Virus record (IMG/VR): IMGVR_UViG_2718217713_000001 | Coordinates: 1-40,734 of that record | Source: a virus | Taxonomy: Duplodnaviria > Heunggongvirae > Uroviricota > Caudoviricetes | DNA: 40,734 bases | Strand: one strand, 5' to 3' | Part shown: positions 3,462-39,316 of the stretch, piece after piece | Position numbering within the stretch: position 1 is the first letter of the stretch | How the letters are laid out: the number at the start of each line of letters is the position of its first letter | Program-made: the position numbers and the translations under genes | The notes under the pieces: generated by a model | Seen by the model: the letters and a program-made list of their open reading frames with translations, nothing else | The model's database searches: none | What the model was told of the DNA's origin: nothing

Positions 3462-3490
3462 TAATACACCTATGGTAGAATATGGTCACT

Positions 3491-3518
3491 TCTCTCTCTC
3501 TATATATATATATATATA
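3491..3518. repeat. Dinucleotide microsatellite (TC)5(TA)9 immediately upstream of the RBS of 3535..4332
   Basis: Direct reading: tctctctctc + 9 x ta, followed by ACTAACGGAGG and ATG at 3535. Confidence 0.9.
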
Positions 3519-3534
3519 ACTAACGGAGGCGGGT

Positions 3535-4332: not shown

Positions 4333-4344
4333 AGCATAAGTCTT

Positions 4345-4632: not shown

Positions 4633-4826
4633 TAGCTTTCGCCTTCCTGCTTTTTGCGTTTCTTCATGCAGATAGCGCAGTTCTCAGGATGGTCATGCCA
4701 TTCATCAATCCTGATACCTATGAACATCCATTTTCCGCATAGTGATATGGCTTCCCCCGAATTAAAGAAATGTGCTTTTTTTGACAGAGCGGGGAACCCC
4801 CAACCCTTATTATCGATATTAGACAT
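4632..4826 (-). CDS. Hypothetical small protein (Cys/His-rich C-terminus)
   Basis: 64-aa ORF with strong RBS AAGGAGGTG; C-terminal WHDHPENCAICMKK; translationally coupled to VRR-NUC. Confidence 0.45.
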   Translation of the reverse strand: MSNIDNKGWGFPALSKKAHFFNSGEAISLCGKWMFIGIRIDEWHDHPENCAICMKKRKKQEGES

Positions 4827-5010
4827 CGTCCACCTCCTTACGCTTTTCGCGCATGTTCTGCATCAGACAAAAATCAAACCGACGTTCGCTTTGGCCCAGA
4901 CCTGCATCGCCCGGTCGTACCCGCCGGACTGTTCAAGGTGCAAAGCCTCCCGCACAGTCCGGTAATAAAGCGGACTGTCCCGGTATTTAAATGACATAGG
5001 GTTTTTATTC

Positions 5011-5036
5011 CCAAATAAAAAACCCCGCGATGCAGG
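5011..5036 (-). terminator. Intrinsic terminator downstream of the TIR-like gene
   Basis: On the minus strand CCCUGC-AUC-GCGGGG hairpin (one G-U pair) followed by UUUUUUAUUU. Confidence 0.55.
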
Positions 5037-5060
5037 GTTGTAATCAACAATAAGGGGTAA

Positions 5061-5822
5061 TTACGAGGAAGCGTTAGCTATTTGAGCTTGTGTAAATTCG
5101 AAACCAGAATTTTGTAACCGTTGCACTAGACGAGGAACTGTTTCACGTACATGGTCGTTGAAATTCAGATACAAAATCCCGTTAGCATCAGAAGGCTGTT
5201 CTAGGTGCTGTTTCTGAAGGATTGCTACATTGCTGCGCCCTAAGGACGAAAGAAGCATACCCATCTCGAGTACAACGTTCTGTCTTGCGCGGGGTTGGAT
5301 TTCTGCTTCACCGGCGCGCTTTGAGTATCCCATATCATCAGGTGTCAAAAGAACAATCCCGAAACGGGTAGCAGTTTGTCCTTGCCCAATTTCACGTTCA
5401 AGCTCTTCAATAATGGTGAGTCCAGTCCCTCCCGTATTCTGCAAAATGAAATGGTCTGGTAATCCAAGTTTATGAAGGATTAGCTCAAGTTGCTCCTTTG
5501 CAGTATGGTCATGGCCGTGAACAATGAATATCTTTTTGGGGAGCTCAGATGGCTGTTCTACGGCTAGTGGTGTTGCCGTGGGCGGCGTTCCTAAATGGGT
5601 CATTATTGCAGTTTCAACATTGGGACGTTCTTGAGGGTTACCTTGAAACTGAATGGTCCGGGTGGTGTAAAGGTTAACAATTACGCCATTCGTTAAACGA
5701 TAGCAGTCACAAGTCTCACGCTGTTCGTGGGAAAAATTGGTGAACCCACACTCCCCCAAAAAGTCAGGAAAAGATTCTCTCGGGTATGGATAGGTGATCG
5801 GCATTTCAGTTAGTTCCTGCAT
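5061..5822 (-). CDS. TIR-like (COG4271/PF10137-type) domain protein with unknown N-terminal domain
   Basis: 253 aa; C-terminal about 150 aa carries motifs KIFIVHGHD, GIVLLTPDD, ARQNVVLEMG...LGR that I recall for the bacterial TIR-like nucleotide-binding family; N-terminal about 95 aa unrecognised; RBS AAAGGA upstream. Confidence 0.55.
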   Translation of the reverse strand: MQELTEMPITYPYPRESFPDFLGECGFTNFSHEQRETCDCYRLTNGVIVNLYTTRTIQFQGNPQERPNVETAIMTHLGTPPTATPLAVEQPSELPKKIFIVHGHDHTAKEQLELILHKLGLPDHFILQNTGGTGLTIIEELEREIGQGQTATRFGIVLLTPDDMGYSKRAGEAEIQPRARQNVVLEMGMLLSSLGRSNVAILQKQHLEQPSDANGILYLNFNDHVRETVPRLVQRLQNSGFEFTQAQIANASS

Positions 5823-5886
5823 AAGTATTGTTCCTTTAATTTACTCGAATTCAGCATGTCGCCATAGCTCGATAAGGTGAGTTATA

Positions 5887-7950
5887 TCAATCTTTTTTGT
5901 AGTGGTACGCCTCAAAACCGCCAGCGTTCAGTGGGATATCGGGCGCCCATTCGGGGTCAGTGGAGAGAAGCGCGGAAAGCGCTTTATCGTTGAAATCTTC
6001 TGTGTCAGGTGCTTCGGTGATCACCTCGTCGTGTACCGTCAGCACAATGCTGTAACCGGCATCTTCGATAAGCGGCATGTTTCCGGCCAGAATGTCGCGG
6101 GCGGCCGCCTGGGTGATGTTCTCCACCAGCTTTCCGCCGTAGGTTTTGAGTCGTTGCCATTTACGCGAATAAGAGTTAACCCCCATGTAGGTGATATTCC
6201 CTTTTTCGATAACCGGAGACGGGTAGCATACAGCGCGTCCTGATGGTAGCTGTATGCGCAGCCACGCGCCATCGCGGCGGATTTTAAGATAACCGCAATA
6301 CAATGTTTTTTGCGGTGTGGCGATTGCAGTGCGGACGGTGCGCTCCAGTTCGTACCAGAAATCACAGGTCGCGGGATGCGCCCGGCGCCAGAGACGTTTA
6401 AGTGAGTCGCAGGCGATAAATACCCGTTCAGAAAGCCCGTAGGTTGACTTGCGTTTAACCGATTCGTCGTACCAGCTTTTCGCCTCGTGGATAACATCGC
6501 GGGGAATGTTTGGTAGTGCGGCGTTCGCCAGCTCGTCGAGATCGAGACCGTAAACCAGTGCAAAAGTGATGAAGGCCGACACACCACCACCATAACCCAG
6601 ACCGAGTTCCATGACTTTACCGATCTGACGCATGTGTTTATCAACATCATCTGGTGCAATATCGAAAGCTTTTGCATACGCCAGTTTATATAAGTCCGGA
6701 CCCGTTCCGGCGTCGTACTCTCTGAATGCATTCAGTTTCCATTCTTCTCCCGCCAGCCATGCCAGCATACGGCCTTCAATGTTCGACAAGTCACTTACCA
6801 CCAGCTTTTTGCCTGTTGGCGCGATAATGCAGCCACGTAACGCTGAACTGGTTAGTTCCATGATATTGTCAAACAGCAGGTCTGCACATCCGGCTTTCAG
6901 TGCTTCGATGCCTTCGTCTATTTGTTCCTGTTTTAGTGAAGGGCGGGGAAGGTTCTGGGGCTGGAATAGCCGTCCGGCCCAACGACCGGTACGTGACGCC
7001 CCGCAGAACTGTAGCGTACCGCGTAAGCGCCCGTCGTGGCTTACGCCTTTCATCAGTGCCTTGTATTTACTGGTGCTGGTAGTACTGGCCTGCAGGCGGA
7101 TAGCCAGCAGTTCTTTCACGGCAGATGGTAAATCGGGGTCGGCAATACGACGTTCCAGAGTACTGCGTTGCATGTCTGGTAGCTCCACACCGTAGGATTC
7201 AACAATGTGCTTAATCAACGCGTCTCGTTGTGTGGCTGCCTGCACTTCGCCATCAGTCATTTCCTGTGTACGCTTTGCCAGGCGCTTTTGTTCCTGGTCT
7301 ACCGCGTCGATCGCAGCGCGTGCGAGTTCCACGTCCATGCAGACGCCCCGGTCATTGATCTGCTGATCACGATGCCAGAGCGTCAGTTCTGTCCCCTGAT
7401 AATTCCACTTCGGCAGACGTTTATAGACTTCGCGCATTGCCTCGATATCCAGTCCGGCGTAAGCAACAAAGCGCCGCCATTCTTCCGGGTGGGTTTTGCT
7501 GGTGGCACGGCGCAGTTTGCTGTTTTTCGGGCGGGGCTTACAGAACAGCTGGATCAGCGCTTTACCTTCTTTGTCCTTCGCTTTGTCTTGCGGGACGCCT
7601 AGTACTTCGCAGAGTTCCCCCAGAGACCCCGGGAGACCGTGCGCCAGCGCCTGCACCATTGTGTCGCGCCAACGTTCGACTGGCGGTGCCAGGCGCGGCA
7701 TTGCATAACGCAGGACGGTGCGGTCGAAGTGAGAGTTATGGAAATAAAGCAGGGTTTCAGGGTCTGCGATTGCTTCGTATAAGCCGTGTGGAATACCACC
7801 ACCGGCAGTGATATCCCACACGTTTACGGGCCCGTCGTTGATAGCCCATGCGAACAGCATCACTTCAACGCCTTCGGCATACGCATGGGTACCGTTCGTA
7901 ATAGGGATTTCGCAATAGGTTTCTAGGTCACCCCATAGTATATTGGACAT
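5887..7950 (-). CDS. Family A DNA polymerase (T7-like, with 3'-5' exonuclease domain)
   Basis: 687 aa; motif [14 protein letters not shown], motif [17 protein letters not shown], motif C VHDEV; N-terminal exonuclease-like region. Confidence 0.9.
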
Positions 7951-8006
7951 AAAATAACCTTGTGTGATATATGGTTATGTAGGCGTAAATAAACAAGGAG
8001 ACGGCG

Positions 8007-8276
8007 GTGTTTAGCTTTGGTATCGGAATACTTTCATTGATAGGTATTATTGCTTTCCCCATTCTTTATATTTTAGGGAGAATAGTTCGGGCTGGTGGCG
8101 CATGGCTCGAACGTGAAGAAGGTCCTAAGGATCGTGTTCTTCCCAAAATTATAATTTTTGCGCTTATTGGGTTCTTTCTTGGGTGTTTGGCTCAGCCTGT
8201 ATGGGACAGCATTTCGGCATGTAGAGACTATGGCAATCCAATAGGGAAATGTCTTTTTAAATTCAATGAATTTTAA
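8007..8276 (+). CDS. Small AT-rich membrane protein (moron, unknown function)
   Basis: 89-aa ORF, GTG start 8 nt after AGGAG, two hydrophobic helices; opposite strand to the replication operon. Confidence 0.45.
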   Translation: MFSFGIGILSLIGIIAFPILYILGRIVRAGGAWLEREEGPKDRVLPKIIIFALIGFFLGCLAQPVWDSISACRDYGNPIGKCLFKFNEF

Positions 8277-8343
8277 TTTTTAGTATTGCGGTAGGCTGGT
8301 TTGGATAACTATTTTCTTAAGCCAGCCTTTGTTATAAGAAATA

Positions 8344-8982
8344 TTAAGCATCTACCCCTTCGTCAGAAGGGAGGCCGATCATTTCGTTGAGAGTTTCGCG
8401 TCGTATAGCTGGCGGAAGCGGAGCAGATGGTGCATCGGCTGGCAGAAGTTCTTTAGCTTCAGGCCACTCTTCCAGCAGGCGCTTAACTGTGCGCACTTTA
8501 CTGAGTGCAGCGCTGACATTCTGTCGAATGTCTGACTCATCGCTCTGTATCTGCTCATAAAGTGCATCAAACCCGTAAAACTCTGTAACTAGAGGGTCAT
8601 TTGCCAGAAGGGTAAATTCCCCCGGCGCGATTTTGTGAATATGGTCTGGTGACCCTGATTCATATCCTCGATAGTTACCGTTGAAATAGACGGTAACCCG
8701 AGAACCTGCCAGATTCAGACACATGTAACACTCTTTCCTGATAATATTATTGGCGGTTTTTAATGCTTCGGGGAATTTTGATACCAGTGTTTCTATTTTT
8801 TTTATAATTTTTAATATTTCAGCTTCTTTCTCTACGCCCCCGATAGCTGCAAGCCGAACACGTTCGGCCCATTCAACACGAGCAGCTCGTAGTGCTGATT
8901 TACGTTTGGGGATACCCGCTTTCTCAAGTGCGTTATTGATGATTTGAGTTTTAAGGTGATTAGTTAATACGGGCTGTGACAT
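8344..8982 (-). CDS. Hypothetical phage protein
   Basis: ORF track 8344..8997; internal ATG at 8982 has the better RBS (GAGGGAAAG); no recognisable motif. Confidence 0.55.
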   Translation of the reverse strand: MSQPVLTNHLKTQIINNALEKAGIPKRKSALRAARVEWAERVRLAAIGGVEKEAEILKIIKKIETLVSKFPEALKTANNIIRKECYMCLNLAGSRVTVYFNGNYRGYESGSPDHIHKIAPGEFTLLANDPLVTEFYGFDALYEQIQSDESDIRQNVSAALSKVRTVKRLLEEWPEAKELLPADAPSAPLPPAIRRETLNEMIGLPSDEGVDA

Positions 8983-9034
8983 TATTCTTTCCCTCATGAG
9001 ATACCCCCAGCACGTAGCTGGGGGATGAATATTT

Positions 9035-9583
9035 TTAAATTAGTGCTTCAGCATCAGCACCTTCGCTGATATCGTCGAAATCGTCAGCGCTTGCCACTCC
9101 GCCGCCAGCGAATGCATCGCCGTCTCGCAGGAACTGGACTCCGCCGAGTGAGGCATTAATGCGTTTACCGAAATTATTGTCCTGTGCCCAGATATCGATA
9201 ACGGCGTTTACATAGCACCCTGCATAGGGACGTCCGTCAGCCTGAATAAGTGGCGAACGATCGCGATCAAGAACAGCTGGGCGCGCTTTGTTAGCAGCAT
9301 TCAGGAAGAAATTACCGGGGAAGCCTTCATACTCTGCTTTTTCATCACCATCATGCAGGCACAGATTGAGTTTTTTCTCCAGCTGGTTATAAATGGGCTC
9401 CCACTTCTCTCCCCATTTTTCCTTCGCTACCTGCTTCATAGCTTTACGGATTTCTTCCAGTTGTGGGTGTTTGGGTGACATTAAAAATACTGCGGAGAAA
9501 CGTGGATCGCCTTCGCCGTTTACAGTTTTAGCTTCAAACAGAGACGGGAAGGCCAGACGAACATTGTTCAGCTTCAGTTTCAT
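9035..9583 (-). CDS. DUF2815-family phage protein (putative ssDNA-binding protein)
   Basis: 182 aa starting MKLKLNNVRLAFPSLFEAK, typical of the DUF2815 family that accompanies phage family-A polymerases; RBS AAGGA. Confidence 0.7.
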   Translation of the reverse strand: MKLKLNNVRLAFPSLFEAKTVNGEGDPRFSAVFLMSPKHPQLEEIRKAMKQVAKEKWGEKWEPIYNQLEKKLNLCLHDGDEKAEYEGFPGNFFLNAANKARPAVLDRDRSPLIQADGRPYAGCYVNAVIDIWAQDNNFGKRINASLGGVQFLRDGDAFAGGGVASADDFDDISEGADAEALI

Positions 9584-9598
9584 GGGTATTTCCTTAAA

Positions 9599-10900
9599 TC
9601 AGATGAGGTCTGCGGTTAGCGTATCGTCGGATACGTCGTCGAAATCATTTATAGGGTTGATATTGAGTGCGGGGCGTGGGTCTGACTCGGGAACGACGGT
9701 GGGTTTACCATCAGCTCGTGTTATCAGTGCCTCGACTTTTGACCAACGGCGCGGACTGGCCTTTTTGATAAGTTTTTCGGCTTTTGTGGGGCTAATAAGT
9801 TTAAAGTCGAATACTTCTTCAGTTTTGTACCTGAACTGGTCCTTCAGAAGTGCGCGAGCTGCCTCTTCATCACTCCAGGCCCGGTTACCTTGTTTTCCTG
9901 TTACCAGTTTAAACCCCGGTACCGGATGTCCGGCATTGAGTTCATTGTGAACCCGGTCTCGTACTGCCTTTAGCCAGGATTCAATAAAGTCGGCCTGGCT
10001 ATAGATCTCCGCAAGCTGCTCAATGGTTAACAGAGGTACACGTGCGCTGGCATTGGTGATTATTTCGCTGACAGGCTTTGTCAGATCTTCAAAATCGCTG
10101 GCCGCTGTTTGTAAATGCTGCATTTTCTGGGCAGTGCAAATAGCTTTTGCTTTACAGAAGCGGCACTGTTTTTCTCCAGGTATGAAGTTTTCCAGCGGTA
10201 GTGTCTCAATGCCTTCGCATTCAGCAATATTGAGAACAAGGATCGCACTGGTTGCGGCCTCCTGTGCCCGTTCACCGAAAGACTGAAGTTCCTGTACGGT
10301 TAACGACCATTCTGAAACGTGGTTGAGCCTTGGCTGGTGAATAAATAATCTTACAGTCTCAAAGTCATACAGCATGCTGAATTGTTCGAGTGCACCCAGG
10401 GCATACAGTTGTAGTTGCTCATTTTGTTCTGCATCAATGCGGACGCCTTTGCCATATTTCAGGTCGTGGATTTGTAATTCGTTACCAGCGATGATTATGC
10501 CGTCGGCAGTTCCGAAAGATTCTTCCACACCCGTTATATGTGAGAAATCAACACGTTGTTCAACCAATAGTTCATTATTCTGTGCAAGAGTCCAGACCGT
10601 ATCAACATACCGGCCAACGGCTTCGACCATTTCATCATCCACCTGTGGGCCAGATGTATCATCAGGATTTTCGCGAAGGGGGTATGAGCCGAGAAACATA
10701 GAAACATTGCATCCGGCGTAGTGTTCCGGGTGGCTTTGCCTGTTTCGTAGAACTTTTTCAGCAAGCGCGTGCGCTGCAGTGCCCTCGATTGCAAAAGTTG
10801 TTTCTTTATCCGGTTGTGTGGCCTCCAGCGCCAGACTTCCTGGGCAGCGCATCCATCGATGCGCTGATGATGGAGAAAGTTGTGCGTGAACGTCTGGCAT
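9599..10900 (-). CDS. DUF2800-family PD-(D/E)xK nuclease (Cas4-like)
   Basis: 433 aa with N-terminal [14 protein letters not shown] motif and Cys cluster ([10 protein letters not shown]); RBS GGAGGG. Confidence 0.75.
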
Positions 10901-16474: not shown

Positions 16475-16897
16475 ATGCGTAATATTCAACAGGTTTTAGA
16501 GCGCTGGGGGGGCTGGGCAGCGAGTGAAGGTGGTAGCGTCTACTTTCCTCCTGTTGCAGCCGGGTTTAAGAATCTGCTACCCGCGACGCAGTCTGGAAGG
16601 CTGAAATGCAGTGACAATGACGGTCTTATCATCAACTCCGCTATGAGCTGCCTGAAGAAAAAAGATCCGTATCTGTGCACGCTCCTTGAGTGGCATTACG
16701 TCCAGGCCATGCCCGTGCGGGCGATGGGTGAGAAGCTCGGCGTATCTCACACCCACGTTCTGAAGAGGCTTCAGGCGGCAGAGGGATTTATTGACGGTTG
16801 CTTAGCCATGCTGGATGTGGTGCTCGAAATGGATCAGTCGGTTCAGTCAAAGCCTCAGGCTATCAGGACTTTGCGTAGGAGCTGCTCGGCGGCATAA
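16475..16897 (+). CDS. Q-type late antiterminator (phage 21/82 Q-like)
   Basis: 140 aa; MRNIQQVLERWGGWAA..AAGFK...LKRLQAAEGFIDGCLAMLDVVLEMD resembles prophage Q-like antiterminators as I recall them; located upstream of the lysis genes. Confidence 0.7.
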   Translation: MRNIQQVLERWGGWAASEGGSVYFPPVAAGFKNLLPATQSGRLKCSDNDGLIINSAMSCLKKKDPYLCTLLEWHYVQAMPVRAMGEKLGVSHTHVLKRLQAAEGFIDGCLAMLDVVLEMDQSVQSKPQAIRTLRRSCSAA

Positions 16898-27108: not shown

Positions 27109-27279
27109 ATGTTTGTGAAACCTGTTAAAGGGCGGTCAGTGCCTGACCCTGCCCACGGCGACCTTTTGCCCGCCGAAGGGCGAAATGTTGATGAGAACAA
27201 CTACTGGCTGCGCCGTGAAGCAGCGGGTGATATCCGGCGCGTGAATAAAAAGGTGAACACCGATGACGATAAGCTTTAA
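27109..27279 (+). CDS. Small conserved protein upstream of tail sheath (DUF2635-like)
   Basis: 56-aa ORF not in the supplied track (below its size cut-off): MFVKPVKGRSVPDPAHGDLLPAEGRNVDENNYWLRREAAGDIRRV...; overlaps sheath start. Confidence 0.4.
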   Translation: MFVKPVKGRSVPDPAHGDLLPAEGRNVDENNYWLRREAAGDIRRVNKKVNTDDDKL

Positions 27280-28759
27280 CACCATTCCGTCGAATACGCT
27301 GGTTCCGCTGTTTTATGCGGAAATGGATAACCAGGCTGCGAATACTGCACAGGACAGCGGAGCATCGCTGCTGATTGGTCATGCCAATAACGGTGCAGAG
27401 ATTGTTGCCAACAGTCTGGTGCTGATGCCGTCGGCAGACTATGCACGCCAGATTTGTGGTGCGGGAAGTCAGCTGGCGCGTATGGTCGAGGCTTATCGCC
27501 AGACCGACCCGTTTGGTGAGCTGTATGTGATTGCCGTTCCGGAAGCCACAGGCGCGGCGGCAACGGTTAAGCTGACGGTGACCGGGGAAGCAACCGAAAG
27601 CGGCACGGTGAATGTCTATGTGGGACGTACCCGCGTGCAGGCTCCGGTGACCAACGGCGATAACGTCACGACGATTGCCAGCAGTATCCAGGATGCCATC
27701 AATGTCGTTCCGACTCTGCCGTTTACAGCTTCATCTTCGGCTGGCGTGGTCACACTGACCGCGCGTCATAAGGGGCTTTGCGGGAATGAAATTCCTGTCA
27801 GCCTCAATTACTACGGCTTCGGTGGGGGCGAAGTGCTGCCAGCGGGCGTACAGATTGCCGTGGCTACGGGGACCGCCGGAACGGGCTCTCCTGTTCTCAC
27901 CGGCGCGGTGGCTGCAATGGCGGATGAGCCGTTTGATTATATCGGCCTGCCGTTCAACGACACGGCCTCCGTTAACACGCTGGTGACCGAGATGAACGAT
28001 ACCAGTGGTCGCTGGAGCTATGCGCGTCAGCTGTATGGTCATGTGTATACGGCAAAGATCGGCACGCTGTCAGAACTGGTGACCGCAGGTGACCAGTTTA
28101 ACCAGCAGCACATTACCCTGGCGGGGTACGAAAAAGAGACCCAGACGCCTGCTGACGAGCTGGCGGCAAGCCGTACCGCCCGCGCAGCGGTGTTTATTCG
28201 CAACGATCCGGCACGTCCCACGCAGACCGGTGAGCTGGTGGGTATGCTGCCTGCGCCGAAGGGGAAACGGTTCACGATGACCGAACAACAGACCCTGCTG
28301 TCTCATGGCGTGGCAACGGCGTATGTCGAAAGCGGGGTACTGCGCATTCAGCGTGATGTCACCACGTACAGGAAAAACGCTTACGGGGTTGCGGATAACA
28401 GCTACCTCGACAGTGAGACGCTGCATACCAGCGCGTATGTACTGCGCAAACTGAAATCCGTCATTACCAGTAAGTACGGGCGTCACAAGCTTGCTAGTGA
28501 TGGTACCCGCTTTGGTCCCGGTCAGGCGATTGTCACCCCGGCGGTGATCAAAGGGGAACTGCTGGCAACCTACCGTCAGCTTGAGCGTGCGGGGATCGTG
28601 GAAAACTACGAACTTTTTAAGCAGTACCTGGTTGTGGAGCGTGATGCCAGCGATCCGAACCGCCTGAACACGCTGTTCCCGCCTGACTATGTTAACCAGT
28701 TGCGTGTCTTTGCCGTGGTTAACCAGTTCCGTCTTCAGTATTCAGAGGAGTCCGCATAA
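27263..28759 (+). CDS. Contractile tail sheath protein (Mu/SfV-like)
   Basis: 498 aa; gene order sheath-tube-chaperone-tape measure. Confidence 0.75.
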   Translation: MTISFNTIPSNTLVPLFYAEMDNQAANTAQDSGASLLIGHANNGAEIVANSLVLMPSADYARQICGAGSQLARMVEAYRQTDPFGELYVIAVPEATGAAATVKLTVTGEATESGTVNVYVGRTRVQAPVTNGDNVTTIASSIQDAINVVPTLPFTASSSAGVVTLTARHKGLCGNEIPVSLNYYGFGGGEVLPAGVQIAVATGTAGTGSPVLTGAVAAMADEPFDYIGLPFNDTASVNTLVTEMNDTSGRWSYARQLYGHVYTAKIGTLSELVTAGDQFNQQHITLAGYEKETQTPADELAASRTARAAVFIRNDPARPTQTGELVGMLPAPKGKRFTMTEQQTLLSHGVATAYVESGVLRIQRDVTTYRKNAYGVADNSYLDSETLHTSAYVLRKLKSVITSKYGRHKLASDGTRFGPGQAIVTPAVIKGELLATYRQLERAGIVENYELFKQYLVVERDASDPNRLNTLFPPDYVNQLRVFAVVNQFRLQYSEESA

Positions 28760-29115
28760 TGGCCCGTATCGGGGGAACCTGTTATTTCAAAATTGACGGT
28801 CAGCAGCTATCGCTGACCGGCGGCATTGAGGTGCCCATGAACAGGACGGTTAACGATGACATCATCGGTCTGGATGGTTCAGTGGACCGCAAGGAAACTC
28901 ACCGCGCGCCTTATGTCAAAGGAACCTTCAAGGTGCCGAAGAATTTTCCGGTGAGCAAAATCACCTCGTCTGATGAGATGACCATCACTGCCGAGCTGGC
29001 GAACGGTCAGGTCTATGTACTGTCGTCTGCCTGGCTGCACGGCGAAGCGAACCATAATGCCGAAGAAGGCACGGTTGATCTTGAGTTCCACGGTGAAGAA
29101 GGGGATTACCAGTAA
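28759..29115 (+). CDS. Tail tube protein
   Basis: 118 aa directly after sheath. Confidence 0.65.
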   Translation: MARIGGTCYFKIDGQQLSLTGGIEVPMNRTVNDDIIGLDGSVDRKETHRAPYVKGTFKVPKNFPVSKITSSDEMTITAELANGQVYVLSSAWLHGEANHNAEEGTVDLEFHGEEGDYQ

Positions 29116-29384
29116 TGAAAGAGCTTGAGTTAAAGAAACCGATTATCGCTCATGGCGAGACACTCTCCGTACTGGAGTTTGATGAACCCACCGGGAAGGA
29201 TGTCCGCGAGCTGGGGTATCCTTACCAGATGAATCAGGATGAGTCCGTCAGACTTCTGGCGCATGTGGTGTCGAAATACATTGTGCGGCTGGCGAAAGTG
29301 CCGCAAAGCTCTGTCGACCAGATGTCTCCGGCAGACCTGAATGCAGCGGCGTGGCTTGTGGCTGGTTTTTTCCTCCAGGCCTGA
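29115..29384 (+). CDS. Tail assembly chaperone (G-like, frame 0)
   Basis: 89 aa; contains slippery heptamer T_TTT_TTC at 29366..29372 near its 3' end. Confidence 0.6.
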   Translation: MKELELKKPIIAHGETLSVLEFDEPTGKDVRELGYPYQMNQDESVRLLAHVVSKYIVRLAKVPQSSVDQMSPADLNAAAWLVAGFFLQA

Positions 29385-29533
29385 CGGCTGAATACCTCAC
29401 TGATCGCTTCTTTGACTGCGCCAGTTACTGGCGCATTAATCCCTTCGAATTGCTGAATATGCCGATCAGTGAAATTCCCTTGCTGGTCAGTCAGGCAAAC
29501 AGGATAGAGCAGGAGAAACGCACACATGGCTGA
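29351..29533 (+). CDS. Tail assembly chaperone -1 frameshift extension (GT-like product)
   Basis: -1 frame ORF overlapping the chaperone 3' end and ending at the tape-measure start; classical G/GT arrangement. Confidence 0.5.
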   Translation: MACGWFFPPGLTAEYLTDRFFDCASYWRINPFELLNMPISEIPLLVSQANRIEQEKRTHG

Positions 29534-31358
29534 ATTTGAGCTTAAGGCGTTGATCACCGGTGTCGACAGGCTTTCTCCGGCGCTGTCGAAAATGCAAAAG
29601 AAAATCCGGGGATTTAAACGCCAGGCGGAAGAAGCGTCACAGGGTGGGCTGGCGCTTGGTGGCGGACTGGCAGCGGGTCTGACGCTTTCCCTGAAATCTT
29701 ATGCCGATCAGGAAAACGCCGCCACCGGGCTGAAAGTCGCCATGATGGATGCGAACGGCGAGGTCGGAAAGAGCTTTCAGGACATCAATAAACTGGCTAT
29801 TGGCCTGGGTAACCAGCTACCCGGTACAACGGCTGATTTTCAGAACATGATGCAGATGCTGGTGCGTCAGGGGATCCCGGCAGAAAACATTCTTGGCGGT
29901 GTGGGTAAAGCGACGGCTTATCTTGCGGTACAACTGAAAAAAACACCGGAAGCGGCTGCTGAGTTTGCCGCAAAGATGCAGGATGCTACCGGAACGGCGT
30001 CAGAAGACATGATGGGGCTGTTCGACACTATCCAGAAGGCGTTTTATCTGGGCGTTGACGATACCAACATGTTGTCCTTCTTCACTAAAACCAGCTCTGT
30101 TCTGAAGATGGTGAACAAGGACGGTCTTCAGGCTGCACAGAGCCTTGCCCCCATCAGCGTCATGATGGATCAGATGGGGATGAACGGGGAGTCGGCAGGT
30201 AACGCCCTGCGAAAAGTTATCCAGTCCGGATTAAGCGTTAAGAAAATCAGGGACGTCAATAAAATCATGGCCCGCCAGAAACTCGGGGTACAGCTCGATT
30301 TTACTGACGGCAAAGGGAGTTTTGGCGGTCTTGATAACATGTTCAGGCAACTGGCAAAGCTGCGAAAACTGACCGACGTTAAACGAACTGGTGTACTTAA
30401 GGCAATATTTGGTGATGATGCCGAAACCCTTCAGGTGGTCAATGCGCTGATCGATAAAGGAAAGGATGGCTACGATCAGATCCAGCAGAAGATGAATAAA
30501 CAGGCCAGCCTGAATAAACGTGTTCAGGCACAGCTTGGTACGCTGTCCAACCTGTGGGAGGCAATGACAGGGACCGCAACTAACGGCCTTGCGGCTATTG
30601 GCGGCGCATTTTCTGGTGACGCTAAAAATATCACGCAATGGCTGGGGGAGTTGGGGGAAAAATTCACGAAGTTTGCGGATGAAAATCCCCGGGTTATTCG
30701 CGGCGTCGTCGGGCTTGCTGCCGGTCTTGCGATTCTGAAACTGGGATTGATGGGCGTGGGCAGTGCCATCAGTATTGTCAGCAGGATCATGTCGATGACG
30801 CCGATTGGCATGATTGCGACGGCGATTGCTCTGGCTGCGGGATTAATTATCACTAACTGGGATGTTGTCGGACCTTATTTCAAGAAGCTCTGGGAAACCA
30901 TTGGTCCTTATTTTGAGGCTGGCTGGGAACTCCTTAAGAAAGTTTTTGCCTGGTCGCCGCTGGGGATGGTGATCAATAACTGGGGGCCGGTTGTTAAGTG
31001 GTTTCAGGATATGTGGGACAAGCTGAAGCCAATTATTGAGTGGTTTACCGACAGTTCCGGTGACACGGTCGATGCCATTAACTCTGCGCAGTGGGGCGCG
31101 GGTGCTTATGATGCTTATGGGACGGGAATACCGGCACGGGGATACACTCCTTATCCGGCGGTGGATCCGGCTCAGGCAAACAACGCCTCCGATGCCACAG
31201 GCCCGAATCCCTTCATGATTAATAAAGCTACCGCGCCAAAAGTTGATGGTGAGATCAAGGTATCATTTATAAATATGCCACCAGGTATGCGGGTTACGGA
31301 AACACGCTCCAGTGGCATTGATATAAATCACGATGTTGGCTATACCCGATTTTGGTAG
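29526..31358 (+). CDS. Tail tape measure protein
   Basis: 610 aa, Ala/Gly-rich with hydrophobic segment, follows the chaperone pair. Confidence 0.8.
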   Translation: MAEFELKALITGVDRLSPALSKMQKKIRGFKRQAEEASQGGLALGGGLAAGLTLSLKSYADQENAATGLKVAMMDANGEVGKSFQDINKLAIGLGNQLPGTTADFQNMMQMLVRQGIPAENILGGVGKATAYLAVQLKKTPEAAAEFAAKMQDATGTASEDMMGLFDTIQKAFYLGVDDTNMLSFFTKTSSVLKMVNKDGLQAAQSLAPISVMMDQMGMNGESAGNALRKVIQSGLSVKKIRDVNKIMARQKLGVQLDFTDGKGSFGGLDNMFRQLAKLRKLTDVKRTGVLKAIFGDDAETLQVVNALIDKGKDGYDQIQQKMNKQASLNKRVQAQLGTLSNLWEAMTGTATNGLAAIGGAFSGDAKNITQWLGELGEKFTKFADENPRVIRGVVGLAAGLAILKLGLMGVGSAISIVSRIMSMTPIGMIATAIALAAGLIITNWDVVGPYFKKLWETIGPYFEAGWELLKKVFAWSPLGMVINNWGPVVKWFQDMWDKLKPIIEWFTDSSGDTVDAINSAQWGAGAYDAYGTGIPARGYTPYPAVDPAQANNASDATGPNPFMINKATAPKVDGEIKVSFINMPPGMRVTETRSSGIDINHDVGYTRFW

Positions 31359-31386
31359 CCAGGATTCCCCTCACATGTATTGCTGG

Positions 31387-31414
31387 TTGTAAGTCATAAA
31401 TAGAGTGATAGAAT
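31387..31414 (+). promoter_or_regulatory. Candidate sigma70 promoter for the tail-module moron
   Basis: TTGTAA-N16-TAGAAT in the AT-rich spacer after the tape-measure gene. Confidence 0.35.
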
Positions 31415-31449
31415 TAATGCACATTTAGAAAAATGTTAATAGGCGAAAA

Positions 31450-31980
31450 ATGAAAGGCTATATCACAGCAAGTGTAATTCTTGGAGCAGCGGCTATTTTT
31501 TCATCTCTCATAATCTCTGGCAACATCTCCTTTAAAGATGAACATATTATTCAGTTATCTGGAGGAGCCATAAAACTTGGTGATGTTTATAAAGAAAATA
31601 AATTGATAAGTGCAAAGATTATTTTTCCAGATAATCAGGGTGAACAGATTCTTGTTGTCGACGGCAATCCTGAAAACTTTAAGGAGGATTTTCAGGAGAA
31701 ATTAAATAAAGTAATAAAAACTTTAAATGCGTCAAAGAAAAAAGATGAAGAGAAAGTTAGTCTGGATAATTTAAGTGTTATTGAAGAGTCTAAACTAGAG
31801 CTCGTTTCTGCGGTGCGTTACTCTGCTCAGTATGTTCCTATGTTTACTCTGACGCTGGACAAAAAAGAAATTACCATGCCTAAAAATACGGTAATATTTC
31901 CATTTGCCAGCGATGAAACAGCTAAGTATTTAAATGAACAACAGCAAAAGTATAAAGATTCGTTGTTTCTGACTCGCTAA
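31450..31980 (+). CDS. AT-rich exported/membrane-anchored protein (moron within tail module)
   Basis: 176 aa, N-terminal signal/anchor helix (ITASVILGAAAIFSSLIISG), Lys/Glu-rich; low GC; own terminator. Confidence 0.5.
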   Translation: MKGYITASVILGAAAIFSSLIISGNISFKDEHIIQLSGGAIKLGDVYKENKLISAKIIFPDNQGEQILVVDGNPENFKEDFQEKLNKVIKTLNASKKKDEEKVSLDNLSVIEESKLELVSAVRYSAQYVPMFTLTLDKKEITMPKNTVIFPFASDETAKYLNEQQQKYKDSLFLTR

Positions 31981-32000
31981 TTAATAAAATTCATTACAAG

Positions 32001-32030
32001 GCCACCTTCTAATAGGTGGCTTTTTTATTT
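32001..32030 (+). terminator. Intrinsic terminator of the tail-module moron
   Basis: 7-bp stem GCCACCT/AGGTGGC, 6-nt loop, followed by TTTTTTATTT. Confidence 0.8.
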
Positions 32031-32041
32031 TCGGAGTGTAT

Positions 32042-33370
32042 ATGACGTGGAAAGACAGGCTTCAGGATGCGTCATTTCGAGGTGTGCCGTTTAAGGTTGA
32101 AGAAGAAAGTGCGGGAACCGGTCGCCGTGTGGAAACACATGAATACCCGAACCGCGACAAGCCCTATACCGAAGATCTGGGAAAAGTCACTTTCCGCCCG
32201 TCCATCACAGCTTATGTGGTGGGAGATGACTGCTTTGACCAGCGCGATCGCCTGATTGAAGCGCTGAATAAACCCGGTCCCGGCACGCTTGTCCACCCGA
32301 CATATGGTGAGCTGAAAGTCTGTGTTGACGGGGAAGTTCGGGTCAGCACATCGAAAAGTGAAGGGCGTATTGTCCGCTTTGACCTGAAGTTTGTCGAAGC
32401 AGGAGAACTCTCTTACCCCACATCAGGTGCGGCGACGGCGCAGACGCTGATGTCATCCTGTTCTGCACTGGATGACTGCATCAGTGACAGCTTCAGCGGT
32501 TTCAGTATCGATGGCGTGGCAGATTTTGTGCAGAACGATGTCGTCGGTAATGCCAGCACAATGCTTGGGTATGTTTCTGATGCGATGAAAGTGGTGGATT
32601 CTGCCGTATCGGATGCCGCCAGGCTGTTGCAGGGGGATATCTCGGTACTTCTGCCGCCGCCATCGTCAGGCAAAAATTTCGTTGAGCAGGTGCAGAAAAT
32701 GTGGCGTACCGGGAAACGCCTTTATGGTAACGCCAGCGACCTGGTCACCATGATCAAAACGCTTTCCGGTGTCAGCCTCGGCAGCGATCTGCAACCGCGC
32801 GGCGTCTGGAAAACGGACAGTAAAACCACCGCCACGGCGACGCAGCAGCGTAACGTGGTTGCCAGCACCCTTCGTACGACCGCAATCAGCGAAGCGGCGT
32901 ATGCCGTCACCCGATTGCCTGCGCCAACAACTTCCGCGGTGATGCAGAATTCCGCAGTGGGGCAGGCAACAACACCCGCGCAGAGTACTGGCTGGCCTTC
33001 CGTCACGCATCCGGCACTGAACAATGCACCGGCGGTGAAAAACACGGTTGACCTGCCGACGTGGGAAGAACTGACTGACATTCGCGACACACTGAATACG
33101 GCAATTGATAAGGAGTTGTCCCGTACAACCAGCGATGCGCTGTTTCTGGCGCTGCGCCGGGTGAAAGCAGATCTGAATGCGGATATCAATACGCGCCTTG
33201 AACAGTCTGCACGGATCATTCAGCGCACACCGGATGAGGTTTTACCCGCGCTGGTGCTGGCGGCGACCTGGTTTGATAACGCGGCGCGTGACGCGGACAT
33301 TATCCGGCGTAATGCCATTACGCATCCCGGCTTTGTGCCGGTGATCCCTCTGAAGGTGCCAGTGCAATGA
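32042..33370 (+). CDS. DNA circularisation protein (Mu N-like)
   Basis: ORF track 32036..33370; ATG at 32042 after GGAG; conserved position after tape measure in Mu-like tails. Confidence 0.65.
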   Translation: MTWKDRLQDASFRGVPFKVEEESAGTGRRVETHEYPNRDKPYTEDLGKVTFRPSITAYVVGDDCFDQRDRLIEALNKPGPGTLVHPTYGELKVCVDGEVRVSTSKSEGRIVRFDLKFVEAGELSYPTSGAATAQTLMSSCSALDDCISDSFSGFSIDGVADFVQNDVVGNASTMLGYVSDAMKVVDSAVSDAARLLQGDISVLLPPPSSGKNFVEQVQKMWRTGKRLYGNASDLVTMIKTLSGVSLGSDLQPRGVWKTDSKTTATATQQRNVVASTLRTTAISEAAYAVTRLPAPTTSAVMQNSAVGQATTPAQSTGWPSVTHPALNNAPAVKNTVDLPTWEELTDIRDTLNTAIDKELSRTTSDALFLALRRVKADLNADINTRLEQSARIIQRTPDEVLPALVLAATWFDNAARDADIIRRNAITHPGFVPVIPLKVPVQ

Positions 33371-34446
33371 ACGACAATGTCACGCTACGGGTAAATGGCC
33401 GGGAGTGGAATGGCTGGACATCGGTGCGCATCGGTGCCGGTATTGAACGGCTGGCGCGGGATTTCAGTGTGGAGATCACCCGCCAGTGGCCGGGTGATGA
33501 GGGTATCACCACGCTTCAGCCGCGCATTAAAAACGGTTCAAAAGTGGAGGTGCTGATTGGTGATGAGCTGGTGATCACCGGCTGGGTGGAGGCTACGCCC
33601 GTTCGTTACGATGCCCGTTCGGTCAGCACCGGTATTGCCGGACGCAGTCTGACCGCTGACCTGATTGATTGTGCAGCCGAACCGACACAGTTTAACGGAC
33701 GATCACTGGTACAGATTGCGCAGGCGCTTGCTGCGCCTTTCGGCATTGAGGTGGTGAACAGCGATGCGCCGTCGGGTGTTATTCCGGATGTCCAGCCTGA
33801 TCACGGTGAAACGGTGATCGAGGTGATCAACAAAATACTCGGTCAGCAGCAGGCACTGGCTTACGACGACCCGCACGGCAGGCTGGTGATTGGCGGTATT
33901 GGCTCAACGCGGGCACATACTGCGCTGGTACTCGGGGAAAACATCCTTTCCTGCGATACGGAGAAGAGTATCCGGGAGCGGTTTTCTGTTTACCAGGTGG
34001 CGGGGCAGCGTGCCGGAAACGACGATGATTTCGGTGAGGCCACCACCACCGCGCTGCGGGCCCGCACAGAGGACGCATTTATTGCCCGTTACCGTCCGAT
34101 GTATATCAGGCAGACAGGGCAGGCTACGGGGGCAGGCTGTATTGCCCGTGCGGACTTTGAAGCCAGACAACGGGCGGCGCGGACGGATGAAACCACCTAT
34201 GTGGTGCAGGGCTGGCGACAGGGTAACGGTACGCTGTGGCAGCCCAACCAGCGGGTGATTGTCTTTGATCCTGTCTGTGGTTTCGACAATACCGAACTGC
34301 TTGTTTCGGAAGTCACGTTTACTCAGGACCAGAACGGCACCCTGACGGAAATCCGTGTCGGCCCACCTGATGCTTATCTGCCTGAACCCGAAGCCCCCGG
34401 CGCGCGGAAAAAGAAAAAAGCCAGAGTACAGGAGGACCCGTTCTGA
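33367..34446 (+). CDS. Baseplate hub protein (Mu P-like)
   Basis: 359 aa, conserved order. Confidence 0.65.
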   Translation: MNDNVTLRVNGREWNGWTSVRIGAGIERLARDFSVEITRQWPGDEGITTLQPRIKNGSKVEVLIGDELVITGWVEATPVRYDARSVSTGIAGRSLTADLIDCAAEPTQFNGRSLVQIAQALAAPFGIEVVNSDAPSGVIPDVQPDHGETVIEVINKILGQQQALAYDDPHGRLVIGGIGSTRAHTALVLGENILSCDTEKSIRERFSVYQVAGQRAGNDDDFGEATTTALRARTEDAFIARYRPMYIRQTGQATGAGCIARADFEARQRAARTDETTYVVQGWRQGNGTLWQPNQRVIVFDPVCGFDNTELLVSEVTFTQDQNGTLTEIRVGPPDAYLPEPEAPGARKKKKARVQEDPF

Positions 34447-34994
34447 TGAGGACGATTGAAGCCATGCAGCGACAACTCCTCGGCCTGATTGGGCGGGCGG
34501 TGGTGAAAAGCATCAGTGCCGCCACGAAATGTCAGACCGTGGATGTGTCCCTGATTGCCGGTGAACCCAAAGCCGGGGTTGAACATCTTGAACCCTACGG
34601 TTTTACCGCAAGGGCAAACAGCGGTGCGGAAGCGGTGGTGTTGTTTCCGGATGGTGACCGTTCTCATGCGGTGGTTGTTACGGTGTCGGACCGGCGCTAC
34701 CGCCTGAAAGGGCTGCAGACGGGTGAGGTGGCTGTCTATGACGATCAGGGGCAGTCCGTGACGCTGACCCGGGAGGGGATCGTGGTGGACGGTGCAGGTA
34801 AAACGATCACGTTTCGCAATTCACCTAAAGCACGTTTTGAAATGGACCTGGAAGTGACAGGACAGGTGAAAGACCTGTGCGACTCCAGCGGCACCACCAT
34901 GTCAGCGATGCGGCTTGCCTATAACGGGCATCGTCACAGAGAGAACGGTCAGGGCAGTAACACCGACAAACCTGATAAAGCGATGGAGGCATGA
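34446..34994 (+). CDS. Baseplate spike/assembly protein V-like
   Basis: 182 aa, conserved order. Confidence 0.6.
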   Translation: MRTIEAMQRQLLGLIGRAVVKSISAATKCQTVDVSLIAGEPKAGVEHLEPYGFTARANSGAEAVVLFPDGDRSHAVVVTVSDRRYRLKGLQTGEVAVYDDQGQSVTLTREGIVVDGAGKTITFRNSPKARFEMDLEVTGQVKDLCDSSGTTMSAMRLAYNGHRHRENGQGSNTDKPDKAMEA

Positions 34995-35419
34995 TGGAAC
35001 TGTGGCTGACGGTGAACGGTAAACGCACCTGCGCCAGCGCACCGCTGGATCCGCTGACCCGCGCCGTGGTGATTTCCCTGTTTACCTGGCGGCGGGCGGA
35101 GCCTGATGACAACGCCGACGTCCCGATGGGATGGTGGGGGGATACCTGGCCTGCGGTACAGAATGACCGTTACGGCTCCCGACTGTGGCTGCTTCAGCGC
35201 AGCAAACTGACCAATCAGCTGGTGCAGACGGTAAGGGGGTATATCCGCGAATGCCTGCAATGGATGATTGATGACGGCGTGGTGTCCCGTATTGATCTGG
35301 ATATCCGCCGCACCGGGATTAATGAACTGGGTAACAGTATCACTCTCTGGCGTCGTGACGGACCGGTAATGATTTCTTTTGATGATCTGTGGAGTGCGAT
35401 AACGCATGGCGGACAGTGA
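34991..35419 (+). CDS. Baseplate protein (Mu gp46 / gp25-like)
   Basis: 142 aa, conserved order. Confidence 0.55.
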   Translation: MMELWLTVNGKRTCASAPLDPLTRAVVISLFTWRRAEPDDNADVPMGWWGDTWPAVQNDRYGSRLWLLQRSKLTNQLVQTVRGYIRECLQWMIDDGVVSRIDLDIRRTGINELGNSITLWRRDGPVMISFDDLWSAITHGGQ

Positions 35420-38126: not shown

Positions 38127-38541
38127 GCCATTCAATATCTGGCGCACCGGAAGTATCAACCAGTTCCAGTGCGTCCAGATAATCCAGCCACAAATTATAT
38201 TGCGCCAGTTCGTCACCTTTCAGACGACCAATAGCGGCTTTACCGGGCCATTGTTTACTGTTCATGTATTCGTTGGCCTGGTTAATTAGTAGCTGTCTTT
38301 CTGATTCAGTAATTTCAATAAGCTCTTCATGCGTGGGTGGAGGAATATCAGCCCACGCAGGCAGCGCATCATCTCCGGCAATACGGACTTTTCCTTGTGG
38401 CGGTTCAGCCATAAACTCACTGACAATATTTTGATTCACTTCTTTCACATCTGATAAATCCCATCCCTCTGATTTATATTTATCAATCATATCCACAGGG
38501 AAAAAAGCATTATGTCTGGCACTATAAACATATTTGTTCAT
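38098..38541 (-). CDS. Alternate tail fibre assembly protein (inverted orientation)
   Basis: ORF track 38098..38583; ATG at 38541 after AGGGTGA; PAWADIPPPTHEE motif. Confidence 0.7.
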   Translation of the reverse strand: MNKYVYSARHNAFFPVDMIDKYKSEGWDLSDVKEVNQNIVSEFMAEPPQGKVRIAGDDALPAWADIPPPTHEELIEITESERQLLINQANEYMNSKQWPGKAAIGRLKGDELAQYNLWLDYLDALELVDTSGAPDIEWPTPPAVQAR

Positions 38542-38561
38542 ATAAATCACCCTGAATAAAA

Positions 38562-38933
38562 TTACTCGCCAACAGCCCACCAACAGTAATTCATGGTAAC
38601 AGTTGGACTTGTCGAGGTTGTTCTAAAGGCAGAATAAAACCCTGTTAACCCTGGCTCTTCAGTTGTCATCATAAAACCACGACCACTCCCGGCAGTTGAA
38701 CCACCATCACCAGAATGTGAAAGCAAGGCAATATCAGCTTTTTTAGGGAAAGGTATATTAAATTCTACCCGTAGTGTCTGACTCGCAAGCGTAGGAGACA
38801 CACGCCCACGACCATATTGCAGGATTTTCCCGTTGGGTAATTTCATCCATCCATCACCACTGGCAAAAGAGGCCATGTCCGGTATCTGATTTTCCCCTGT
38901 TCCCACATTTCGTTTCGCCGCTTCTCCCAAACC
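38562..38933 (-). CDS. Alternate tail-fibre C-terminal segment (start-less, expressed only after inversion)
   Basis: Minus-strand reading frame open from the right crossover site; encodes LGEAAK... matching the junction of the plus-strand fibre gene. Confidence 0.55.
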
Positions 38934-38947
38934 AACGTTTATGAAAA
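38922..38947. other. Right DNA-invertase crossover site (inverted copy)
   Basis: TTCTCCCAAACC-AA-CGTTTATGAAAA; left half is the reverse complement of the right half of the 37320..37345 site. Confidence 0.6.
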
Positions 38948-39001
38948 TGCAGAAATAACGAGCAAATGGCATCATTCCTGCTTTTGTCAGGGAGATCTAC
39001 C

Positions 39002-39316
39002 ATGCTTATTGGCTATGTACGTGTGTCAACAAATGACCAGAACACCGATCTGCAACGTAATGCACTGAACTGCGCGGGATGTGAGCGGATTTTTGAGGAT
39101 ACAATCAGTGGCACTAAGTCCGACAGACCAGGGCTGAAAAAACTGCTCAGGACATTATCGGCAGGTGACACTCTGGTTGTCTGGAAGCTGGATCGGCTGG
39201 GGCGCAGTATGCGGCATCTTGTCGTGCTGGTGGAGGAGTTGCGCGAACAAGGTGTTAACTTTAGTAGTTATGTTATTACAGGTGGGGGATTTCTCCCCCT
39301 TATGCAGATTTTCTAG
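39002..39316 (+). pseudogene. pin: Serine DNA invertase Pin/Gin/Hin family, 3'-truncated after about codon 86
   Basis: MLIGYVRVSTNDQNTDLQRNAL...GDTLVVWKLDRLGRSM matches the invertase N-terminus; similarity stops after ...GVNF and the frame ends 18 codons later; a full invertase is about 185-190 aa. Confidence 0.7.

Follow-up and report, generated by a model that had tools for sequence, protein, structure and literature searches.

A probable moron cassette between the tape-measure and hub genes of an SfV-like Escherichia coli prophage, and its predicted membrane-anchored product

Introduction

A moron, in the sense of Juhala and Hendrix, is a piece of extra DNA that is absent in close relatives, deviates in composition, carries its own promoter and terminator, and is expressed from the repressed prophage (PMC3594210). 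[quoted passage not shown] Other prophage-encoded proteins with a membrane or lipid anchor, among them SieA of P22, Imm of T4, Sie2009 of Tuc2009, and Ltp of TP-J34, block DNA entry by interfering with conduit or tape-measure proteins that the phage ejects (PMC10883804). The tape-measure protein is also the target of Tab of phage JBD26, which is encoded in the late operon and expressed in the lysogen (PMC10884400), and Tai systems, for which the tape measure is a target as well, are known from PICIs and P4-like satellites as well as from prophages (PMC11364771).

A moron in a tail operon is, as such, an already known and textbook kind of feature. The SfIV paper describes a different moron, positioned between Q and the lysis genes, and a search of the literature returned no description of the slot between the tape-measure and hub genes considered here, of SfV morons of this kind, of the RefSeq accession of the encoded protein, or of its family. 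What is new in this report is the definition and census of that slot as a hotspot, the assignment of the terminator-like hairpin to the slot, and the description of phrog_5485 as comprising predicted anchored periplasmic proteins for which no relative of solved structure was found.

An AT-rich gap among packed tail genes

The window, a stretch of 40,734 nucleotides (IMG/VR record IMGVR_UViG_2718217713_000001), holds a complete prophage of about 39 kb. It matches E. coli strain C11 (NZ_CP010133) with 100% identity, and its integration site lies between yfhL and yfhH. The head module is of the HK97 type, and the tail is of the contractile Mu type, with genes for sheath, tube, chaperone, tape measure, and a DNA-circularisation or gpN-like hub; further tail genes are gpP-like, gp45-like, gp46, baseplate J, YmfQ, the fibres, and an invertase remnant. 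The prophage is SfV-like, and in its tail genes it shares 96% identity with SfV, SfII, and SfI, serotype-converting phages of Shigella.

The tail genes on both sides of the slot abut or overlap, upstream (27263-28759, 28759-29115, and 29115-29384) as well as downstream (33367-34446, 34446-34994, and 34991-35419), and for this reason the gap between the tape-measure and hub genes is exceptional (Table 1). The GC content of the gap is 0.34, compared with 0.50 and 0.54 in the 500 nt on either side; in 200-nt windows it stays at 0.30-0.385 across 31300-32099, stands at 0.44 in 31200-31399, and is 0.50-0.62 further out. The first-pass annotation had described an AT-rich block interrupting packed, overlapping tail genes, with an ORF inside it and tape-measure and DNA-circularisation genes as its neighbours, and each of these points holds: the block and its composition are as described, Pfam domains identify both flanking genes, and RefSeq records the same CDS for the ORF.

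The ORF is preceded by a Shine-Dalgarno core, AGG, at 31441-31443. The hub gene has a Shine-Dalgarno sequence, GGAG, at 32033-32036 and begins at the ATG at 32042, which is also the RefSeq start, and not at the GTG at 32036. An Rfam scan of the whole window returned no RNA family, and a riboswitch or sRNA in the spacer was dropped as a candidate on that account.

Table 1. Features in and around the gap, and contents of the slot among complete E. coli genomes
Feature	Position or example	Strand	Evidence or frequency
Q-family antiterminator gene	16475..16897	+	RefSeq 'antiterminator Q family protein', L001 5117-5539 (window offset +11358)
Tail tape-measure protein gene (left border of slot)	29526..31358	+	PF10145 PhageMin_Tail 1.3e-26; tape-measure PHROGs; RefSeq 'phage tail tape measure protein'
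AT-rich probable cargo cassette, tape-measure stop to hub-gene ATG	31359..32041	+	683 nt; GC; presence/absence in E. coli
Candidate sigma-70 promoter TTGTAA-N16-TAGAAT	31387..31414	+	consensus scan; -35 31387-31392, -10 31409-31414
ORF, 176 aa, ATG start	31450..31980	+	phrog_5485 family; RefSeq WP_000679479.1 hypothetical protein
Intrinsic-terminator-like hairpin (AAGGCCACC / GGTGGCTT), then TTTTTTATTTT	31998..32031	+	folding, shuffles
DNA-circularisation (Mu gpN-like)/baseplate-hub gene (right border of slot)	32042..33370	+	PF07157 DNA_circ_N 3.7e-34; phrog_184 baseplate hub
Slot empty, 60-nt spacer	L002		532/5426
Slot with 176-aa TM-anchored ORF	window		179/5426
Slot with 164-aa signal-peptide protein	L003, phage SKA5		85/5426
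Slot with 148-aa TM-anchored tRNA_anti-like OB fold	L004, L008	-	79/5426
Slot with 225-aa lipoprotein	L006, L007		55/5426
Slot with 125-aa bPH_1 protein	L005		42/5426

The slot as a hotspot for cargo genes

By megablast, 1098 of the 5426 complete genomes of E. coli have the 1-kb flanks of the cassette, whereas the full query was found in only about 173 and the insert in about 174-179. Other genomes carry the slot empty or filled with different cargo (Table 1), and the plaque-forming phages SfV, SfII, and SfI have it empty, with the same 60-nt spacer. In prophages with other cargo the flanks are 96-98% identical, and the cargo genes are all AT-rich (GC 0.31-0.42, compared with 0.50-0.55 in the flanks). 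Four of the five types of filled slot hold a gene for an envelope-targeted product, marked by a TM anchor, a signal peptide, a lipobox, or a TM segment joined to an OB fold. The signal-peptide, OB-fold, and lipoprotein cargoes were considered as remote relatives of the 176-aa ORF and rejected, with hhalign probabilities below 1%, and no defence-protein model of PADLOC-DB v2 was matched at E <= 0.1 by the ORF or by the four alternative cargoes. Because the cargo on the opposite strand must have a promoter of its own, the slot does accommodate genes with transcription independent of the operon.

The ORF is intact in 176 of 181 matching records, and the E. coli that carry the insert come from humans and environmental sources as well as from cattle, poultry, and pigs. 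Some records with the insert are labelled as plasmids; these are phage late regions in circles of 19-64 kb, one of them with IS26, and they were rejected as proof of inducibility.

There is little doubt, judging from these comparisons of sequence, that the cassette is accessory cargo in a hotspot. The block is absent at the same position in SfV, SfII, SfI, and the 532 genomes with an empty slot, and its composition is unlike that of the surrounding genes, as it is in every context in which a homologue was found. An inserted accessory block, as the first-pass annotation had proposed, is therefore borne out by comparison with insert-less relatives, and the distribution supports classing the cassette as a moron in the Juhala and Hendrix sense and not as a structural gene. 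The arrangement resembles the hotspots of P2 and P4, where unrelated accessory genes likewise replace one another at a fixed position between conserved phage genes. It differs from defence hotspots in that the cargoes are small single genes, mostly for envelope proteins, none of which matches a PADLOC model.

A hairpin that belongs to the slot

The intrinsic terminator that had been proposed downstream of the ORF is confirmed as a strong signal by folding. The stem-loop at 31998..32023, which is followed by the T-run and, 10 nt beyond that, by the hub ATG, has a folding energy of -15.6 kcal/mol (z = -4.8), and none of 200 shuffled sequences folded equally well. A GC hairpin with T6-7, 13-14 nt upstream of the hub ATG, is also found in the empty slot, where the depositors of the SfII sequence annotated it as a putative rho-independent terminator. 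Equivalent hairpins with a T-run occur in slots with other plus-strand cargo and in the orthologous slots of other genera, and the stem sequences vary between slot copies, in part through compensatory changes. Only the slot with minus-strand cargo is without a hairpin on the hub side, and there a hairpin lies beside the tape-measure stop instead. Since an equivalent hairpin is found in empty and otherwise filled slots, the terminator-like element is a resident part of the slot architecture and was not necessarily brought by the insert.

In lambdoid phages, Q-modified polymerase reads through terminators. The prophage encodes a Q antiterminator (Table 1), and a terminator within the late operon is for this reason compatible with phage growth.

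A family of predicted membrane-anchored periplasmic proteins

The ORF matches phrog_5485 over its full length (residues 1-176 on profile positions 1-176, E = 3.8e-108); phrog_5485 and phrog_34391 are its only matches in PHROGs, and all 57 aligned relatives match phrog_5485. When 1.8 billion cluster representatives were searched with a profile, 77 family clusters emerged, nearly all of 165-195 aa, with conservation that spans 99% down to about 20% identity. The remote-homology search that the first-pass annotation had suggested thus yielded a broad family but no characterised relative, as the ORF has no match in Pfam, NCBIfam, or PADLOC, a PDB profile search gave nothing significant, and the predicted fold matched no solved structure. 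A Pfam scan across the family alignment gave only scattered single-member noise, and domain, family, and fold searches found no similarity to known virulence or envelope factors. The ORF is a full-length member of a family without assigned function, so that membership in phrog_5485 explains no mechanism.

In the alignment of 57 sequences the N-terminal hydrophobic segment is conserved, and it is closely followed by the motif N-[IV]-[IL]-x4-G-x-V-[KR]-L-G-x-V-Y-x-E, in which G39, L43, G44, and E49 are near-invariant; a second conserved motif is Y124-x-S-E-x-x-P-x-F-x-L134. The AlphaFold2 model built with the family alignment (pLDDT 92.1, pTM 0.77) has a helix at residues 2-23 (nt 31453-31518), a short linker, and an alpha/beta domain, in which long strands (46-58, 65-72, 114-126, and 132-143) form an antiparallel sheet that packs on helices 74-93 and 149-171. 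The helix coincides with a single N-terminal hydrophobic segment, whose maximum hydropathy over 19 residues is 2.1 in the ORF and has a median of 2.2 in the family. A positive-inside bias is present in 95% of the 57 members, with a net positive N-terminus and a net negative charge over the 15 residues after the helix.

Model, hydropathy, and charge bias together bear out the N-terminal signal or anchor helix of the earlier reading, and the product is very likely a membrane-anchored periplasmic protein. The predicted topology is bitopic, N-in/C-out, with a periplasmic domain of about 145 residues, which would place the protein in or at the cytoplasmic membrane, as in membrane exclusion proteins. 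Among fold neighbours only one is significant, a protein of Pseudomonas phage ventosus that UniProt names 'Lipoprotein' (A0A2H4P829 in BFVD; Foldseek E = 9.5e-7, TM 0.56/0.66). Like the ORF product it is a phage-encoded, membrane-tethered extracytoplasmic protein, but the two share 16% identity, the one is named as a lipoprotein whereas the other is predicted to have a TM-helix anchor, and both are uncharacterised.

Homologues and their surroundings

Close copies of the ORF are confined to E. coli, and homologues at 52-58% identity occur in prophages of Leclercia and Lelliottia. The insert had no match in the INPHARED phage collection by blastn and tblastn, and prophages and metagenomes of diverse environments are the only known sources of the family. 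Homologues at 58-30% identity occupy the same slot between tape-measure and DNA_circ_N genes (L009-L013, L018/L019, and L026), in prophages that share 75-88% identity with the window in their structural tail proteins. In one of these (L009) the cargo is 53% and the tape measure 36% identical, and in another (L013) the corresponding values are 55% and 77%; cargo identity does not track tape-measure identity, and a specificity matched to the tape measure was dropped as an explanation.

Further members lie elsewhere. A homologue at 30% identity is found in a different myovirus baseplate module (L027), upstream of a spike gene that it overlaps by 4 nt, and is by virtue of that overlap embedded in a late operon. 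A distant member (L016) lies directly downstream of a SieB-family gene (PF14163, 4e-30) and upstream of a weak HEPN match, and another (L022) has a DUF2971/PDC-S31 candidate defence gene as its neighbour in an element with an integrase. One member adjoins a phage TMP_3 gene of opposite orientation (L020), and one lies with housekeeping genes at the end of its contig (L021). Compared with the surrounding genes, GC is lower by 5-20 points in every context.

Promoter candidate and expression

The candidate promoter upstream of the ORF is a 9/12 match to consensus within AT-rich DNA and has a TG extended -10 at 31406-31407 (TGaTAGAAT). An equal or better match arose in 2.8% of shuffles of the 91-nt spacer, and over a wider 5 kb promoter-like sites are no commoner than chance, with five found and 4.3 expected. 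The match is not conserved in the orthologous slots of other genera: in one of them (L009) the 69-nt spacer is without a promoter match, and in two others the distance from tape-measure stop to start codon is only 26 nt (L018) or 34 nt (L026). The first-pass annotation had read the block as a self-contained moron with a promoter, an ORF, and a terminator. All three elements can be located in the sequence, but 'self-contained' goes too far: the hairpin is resident in the empty slot, and the promoter is a candidate by consensus match in the E. coli copy that the orthologous slots do not share.

Whether the gene is expressed from the repressed prophage is, on the sequence evidence, about evenly balanced. 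For the E. coli copy such expression is plausible, given the promoter match and a terminator that would shield the baseplate genes from it. As a general property of the family it is unlikely, because some orthologous slots leave 26-34 nt or have no promoter match, and in phages with such short or promoter-less slots it is probably the late transcript that supplies the product.

What the cassette may do

The reading that we favour on balance, with rather more confidence than doubt, is that of an exchanged moron cassette in an SfV-like hotspot, encoding a single bitopic membrane protein for which phage exclusion is the likeliest role. On this reading the cassette is horizontally exchanged and occupies a recombination hotspot of SfV-like temperate myoviruses, bounded on one side by the stop codon of the tape-measure gene and on the other by the ribosome-binding site of the hub gene. 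In the lysogen it would be transcribed from its own weak sigma-70 promoter, with a predicted start near 31421, and the transcript would end at the hairpin and T-run, leaving the downstream baseplate genes silent. After induction, Q-modified late transcription would read through the terminator, as lambdoid biology suggests, and owing to such read-through the cassette would leave the tail operon unbroken and probably also be made late. The protein, anchored in the inner membrane so that its domain projects into the periplasm, would disturb the tail-tip or tape-measure conduit of an incoming phage and so block DNA entry.

Superinfection exclusion at the envelope, through disturbance of DNA injection, is itself a tentative assignment, possible but short of probable, made by analogy with known systems. 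It is suggested by the predicted location of the product, by the predominance of envelope types among the cargoes, by the SieB and candidate-defence neighbours of distant members, and by the precedents of HK97 gp15, SieA, Tab, and Tai. The ORF product has neither sequence nor fold homology to a characterised exclusion protein. More speculative still, and rather doubtful, is the wider proposal that the tape-measure/hub junction is a dedicated, terminator-bounded docking site for single-gene envelope anti-phage cassettes, that phrog_5485 is an injection-blocking family with a new fold, and that its placement reflects a link to the tail-tip conduit that would be blocked.

Among the precedents, HK97 gene 15 shares with the cassette its position as an extra tail-operon gene directly beside the tape-measure gene, its deviant composition, and promoter and terminator signals, which in the cassette are candidates, and both products are small inner-membrane proteins (by prediction for the ORF) that are dispensable for the phage. 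The two differ in that gene 15 is upstream of a siphovirus tape-measure gene, whereas the ORF is downstream of one for a contractile, Mu-type tail. No sequence relationship between them was detected, the ORF matching its own two PHROGs only, and the ORF product differs from gp15 in having a sizeable predicted periplasmic globular domain. SieA, Imm, Sie2009, and Ltp share with the ORF product a location at the cytoplasmic membrane (predicted for the latter), and a shared mechanism would be an analogy only; P22 SieA, for which three TM segments are predicted, lacks a large periplasmic domain, unlike the ORF product, which has no Pfam or PADLOC hit and no solved-structure fold match to tie it to proteins of the SieA type. 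For Tab and Tai the site of action is assembly in the cytoplasm, whereas the ORF product is predicted at the envelope.

A different role, within the phage's own lytic cycle, would follow if the gene were simply part of the late tail operon; it might stop injection by progeny or superinfecting phage into the infected cell or debris, or modulate the envelope at tail or hub assembly or at lysis, and would then be no conversion gene expressed in the lysogen. The orientation of the gene is that of the late operon, and the short or promoter-less orthologous slots and the homologue that overlaps a spike gene fit such a role. So does the long-term stay near tape-measure and hub genes across genera at 30-58% identity, which could also point to a role bound up with the tail module itself. 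Yet the gene is dispensable, as SfV, SfII, SfI, and more than 500 prophages have no gene in the slot at all, the slot accepts a gene on the opposite strand too, the promoter match of the E. coli copy, with its extended -10, is better than chance in its spacer, and distant members lie outside tail modules, beside SieB or in integrase-bearing islands. We consider a purely late-cycle function improbable.

Lambda Bor and Lom are conversion proteins of the host-fitness or virulence type, and the cassette could likewise serve the lysogen, through envelope physiology, stress or serum resistance, or colonisation. A product that is predicted to be exported or anchored, a moron-like architecture, and the wide occurrence in E. 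coli from animals, humans, and the environment would all suit a factor of this kind, and such roles of morons are known (PMC3594210). The searches found no similarity to known virulence or envelope factors, though, and the environmental metagenomes and the SieB and candidate-defence neighbours fit conflict between phages better. The arguments on both sides are indirect, and a role in host fitness is to our minds no likelier than a late-cycle one.

A structural or assembly component of the tail, such as a factor for hub or tape-measure assembly, is very unlikely, even though the gene is positioned between tape-measure and hub genes and homologues recur in that position. The empty slot in functional phages with 96% identical flanking genes, and the replacement of the ORF by unrelated genes, argue that it is no structural component; the first-pass annotation had named a conserved structural gene in all related phages, together with a lack of transcription in lysogens, as what would speak against a moron, and the comparative half of this is decided in favour of a moron, as SfV, SfII, SfI, and most prophages with the same flanks do not have the ORF although they share the SfV-like, Mu-type tail module. 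The predicted N-in/C-out anchor would, moreover, put the domain in the periplasm, whereas tail assembly is cytoplasmic, and the composition is foreign to the tail module. Finally, a spurious ORF in AT-rich junk or a decaying remnant, for which the annotation as 'hypothetical protein' everywhere and the want of a Pfam family might speak, is effectively refuted by conservation, given the many clusters of similar length with invariant motifs over so wide a range of identity, the confident predicted fold, and the intact frame in nearly all matching records.

Significance

If the gene were expressed late only, the cassette would be an example that position and AT-richness alone do not prove expression in the lysogen. 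The conserved end of the tape-measure gene, the cargo, the hairpin and T-run, and the GGAG-ATG of the hub gene provide an anchor for mining further cargo. If the proposed explanation is true, the slot would be a compact hotspot, with flanks in about 20% of complete E. coli genomes, for at least five unrelated and uncharacterised cargo proteins that are absent from current catalogues of defence systems. Should exclusion prove true of the phrog_5485 cargo, the gene would be an easily testable single-gene phage-exclusion factor in about 3% of complete E. coli genomes, and genes of the exclusion type shape phage host range, with consequences for phage therapy and for the ecology of prophages.

Terminator-like hairpins between the tape-measure and hub genes

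Empty slots too, in an E. coli locus (L002) and in phage SfII, hold a terminator-like hairpin followed by a run of T residues between the tape-measure and hub genes, and the distance from this element to the hub ATG is constant at 13-14 nt. The stems differ among the copies, with compensatory changes accounting for part of the difference. Because a terminator in this position lies amid the late tail operon, its presence implies read-through that depends on the prophage antiterminator Q, or else the hairpin may be a relic of cargo that has since been lost from the slot. Within the 5' end of the ORF that occupies the slot is also a promoter-like site directed back at the tape-measure gene, which is probably a chance match, the DNA being AT-rich.

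Features of the slot, the tail module and other prophage regions
Feature	Location	Strand	Context
Intrinsic-terminator-like hairpin and T-run	window 32021-32041; L002 1463-1522; L014 (SfII) 1275-1313		tape-measure/hub junction
Promoter-like TTGCCA-17-AAAAAT with TG	window 31495-31523	minus	ORF 5' end
Pair of additional genes (products of 503-507 aa and 94 aa)	L009 8013-9808; likewise L010, L011, L013		between DNA_circ_N and gpP-like genes
141-nt gap	window 29385-29525		tail assembly chaperone to tape-measure gene; ORF 29351-29533 overlaps
TIR-domain protein WP_073488396.1	window about 5061-5822	minus	early-left region
Replication/modification module	window about 2068-10900	minus	early-left region
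Fibre and fibre-assembly gene fragments in opposite orientations; truncated recombinase (pin-like invertase) pseudogene	window about 38141-39268		tail-fibre region
SieB-family gene, distant phrog_5485 member, 169-aa protein, 170-aa multi-TM protein (consecutive)	L016 158-2516		metagenomic contig

Other regions of the prophage and related records

The junction of the DNA_circ_N and gpP-like genes looks like a second variable site of the same tail module: the two genes overlap directly in the window (33367-33370), where Leclercia-type relatives have two extra genes, neither with a Pfam match. The region between the tail assembly chaperone and tape-measure genes, a 141-nt gap in the window, is the usual site of the chaperone's frameshifted extension. 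In one O121 strain (NZ_CP193494.1), the tape-measure gene of a related prophage is broken by an IS3-family transposase.

Outside the tail module, the fibre-switching system appears to have decayed in this copy of the prophage. The early-left module, which encodes a DEAD/DEAH helicase, VRR-NUC, a family-A-type DNA polymerase, an Nmad5 'nucleotide modification' protein, DUF2815 and DUF2800, is unusual among SfV-like prophages, and the TIR-domain protein of this region might act in defence or counter-defence.

Five records, among them CP088862.1 (35.4 kb), have been deposited in which the late region of this phage type, insert included, is a circular 'non-mobilizable plasmid'; their sizes span 19-64 kb, and one contains an IS26 in its lysis region. 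Such circles may represent phage DNA that was excised or packaged, or they may have arisen as artefacts of assembly. On the metagenomic contig that carries a distant phrog_5485 member, the neighboring genes include a SieB-family match (4e-30) and one for a 169-aa protein that weakly matches HEPN (RiboL-PSP-HEPN, 1.8e-3), and the row of four genes may constitute an exclusion or abortive-infection cluster.
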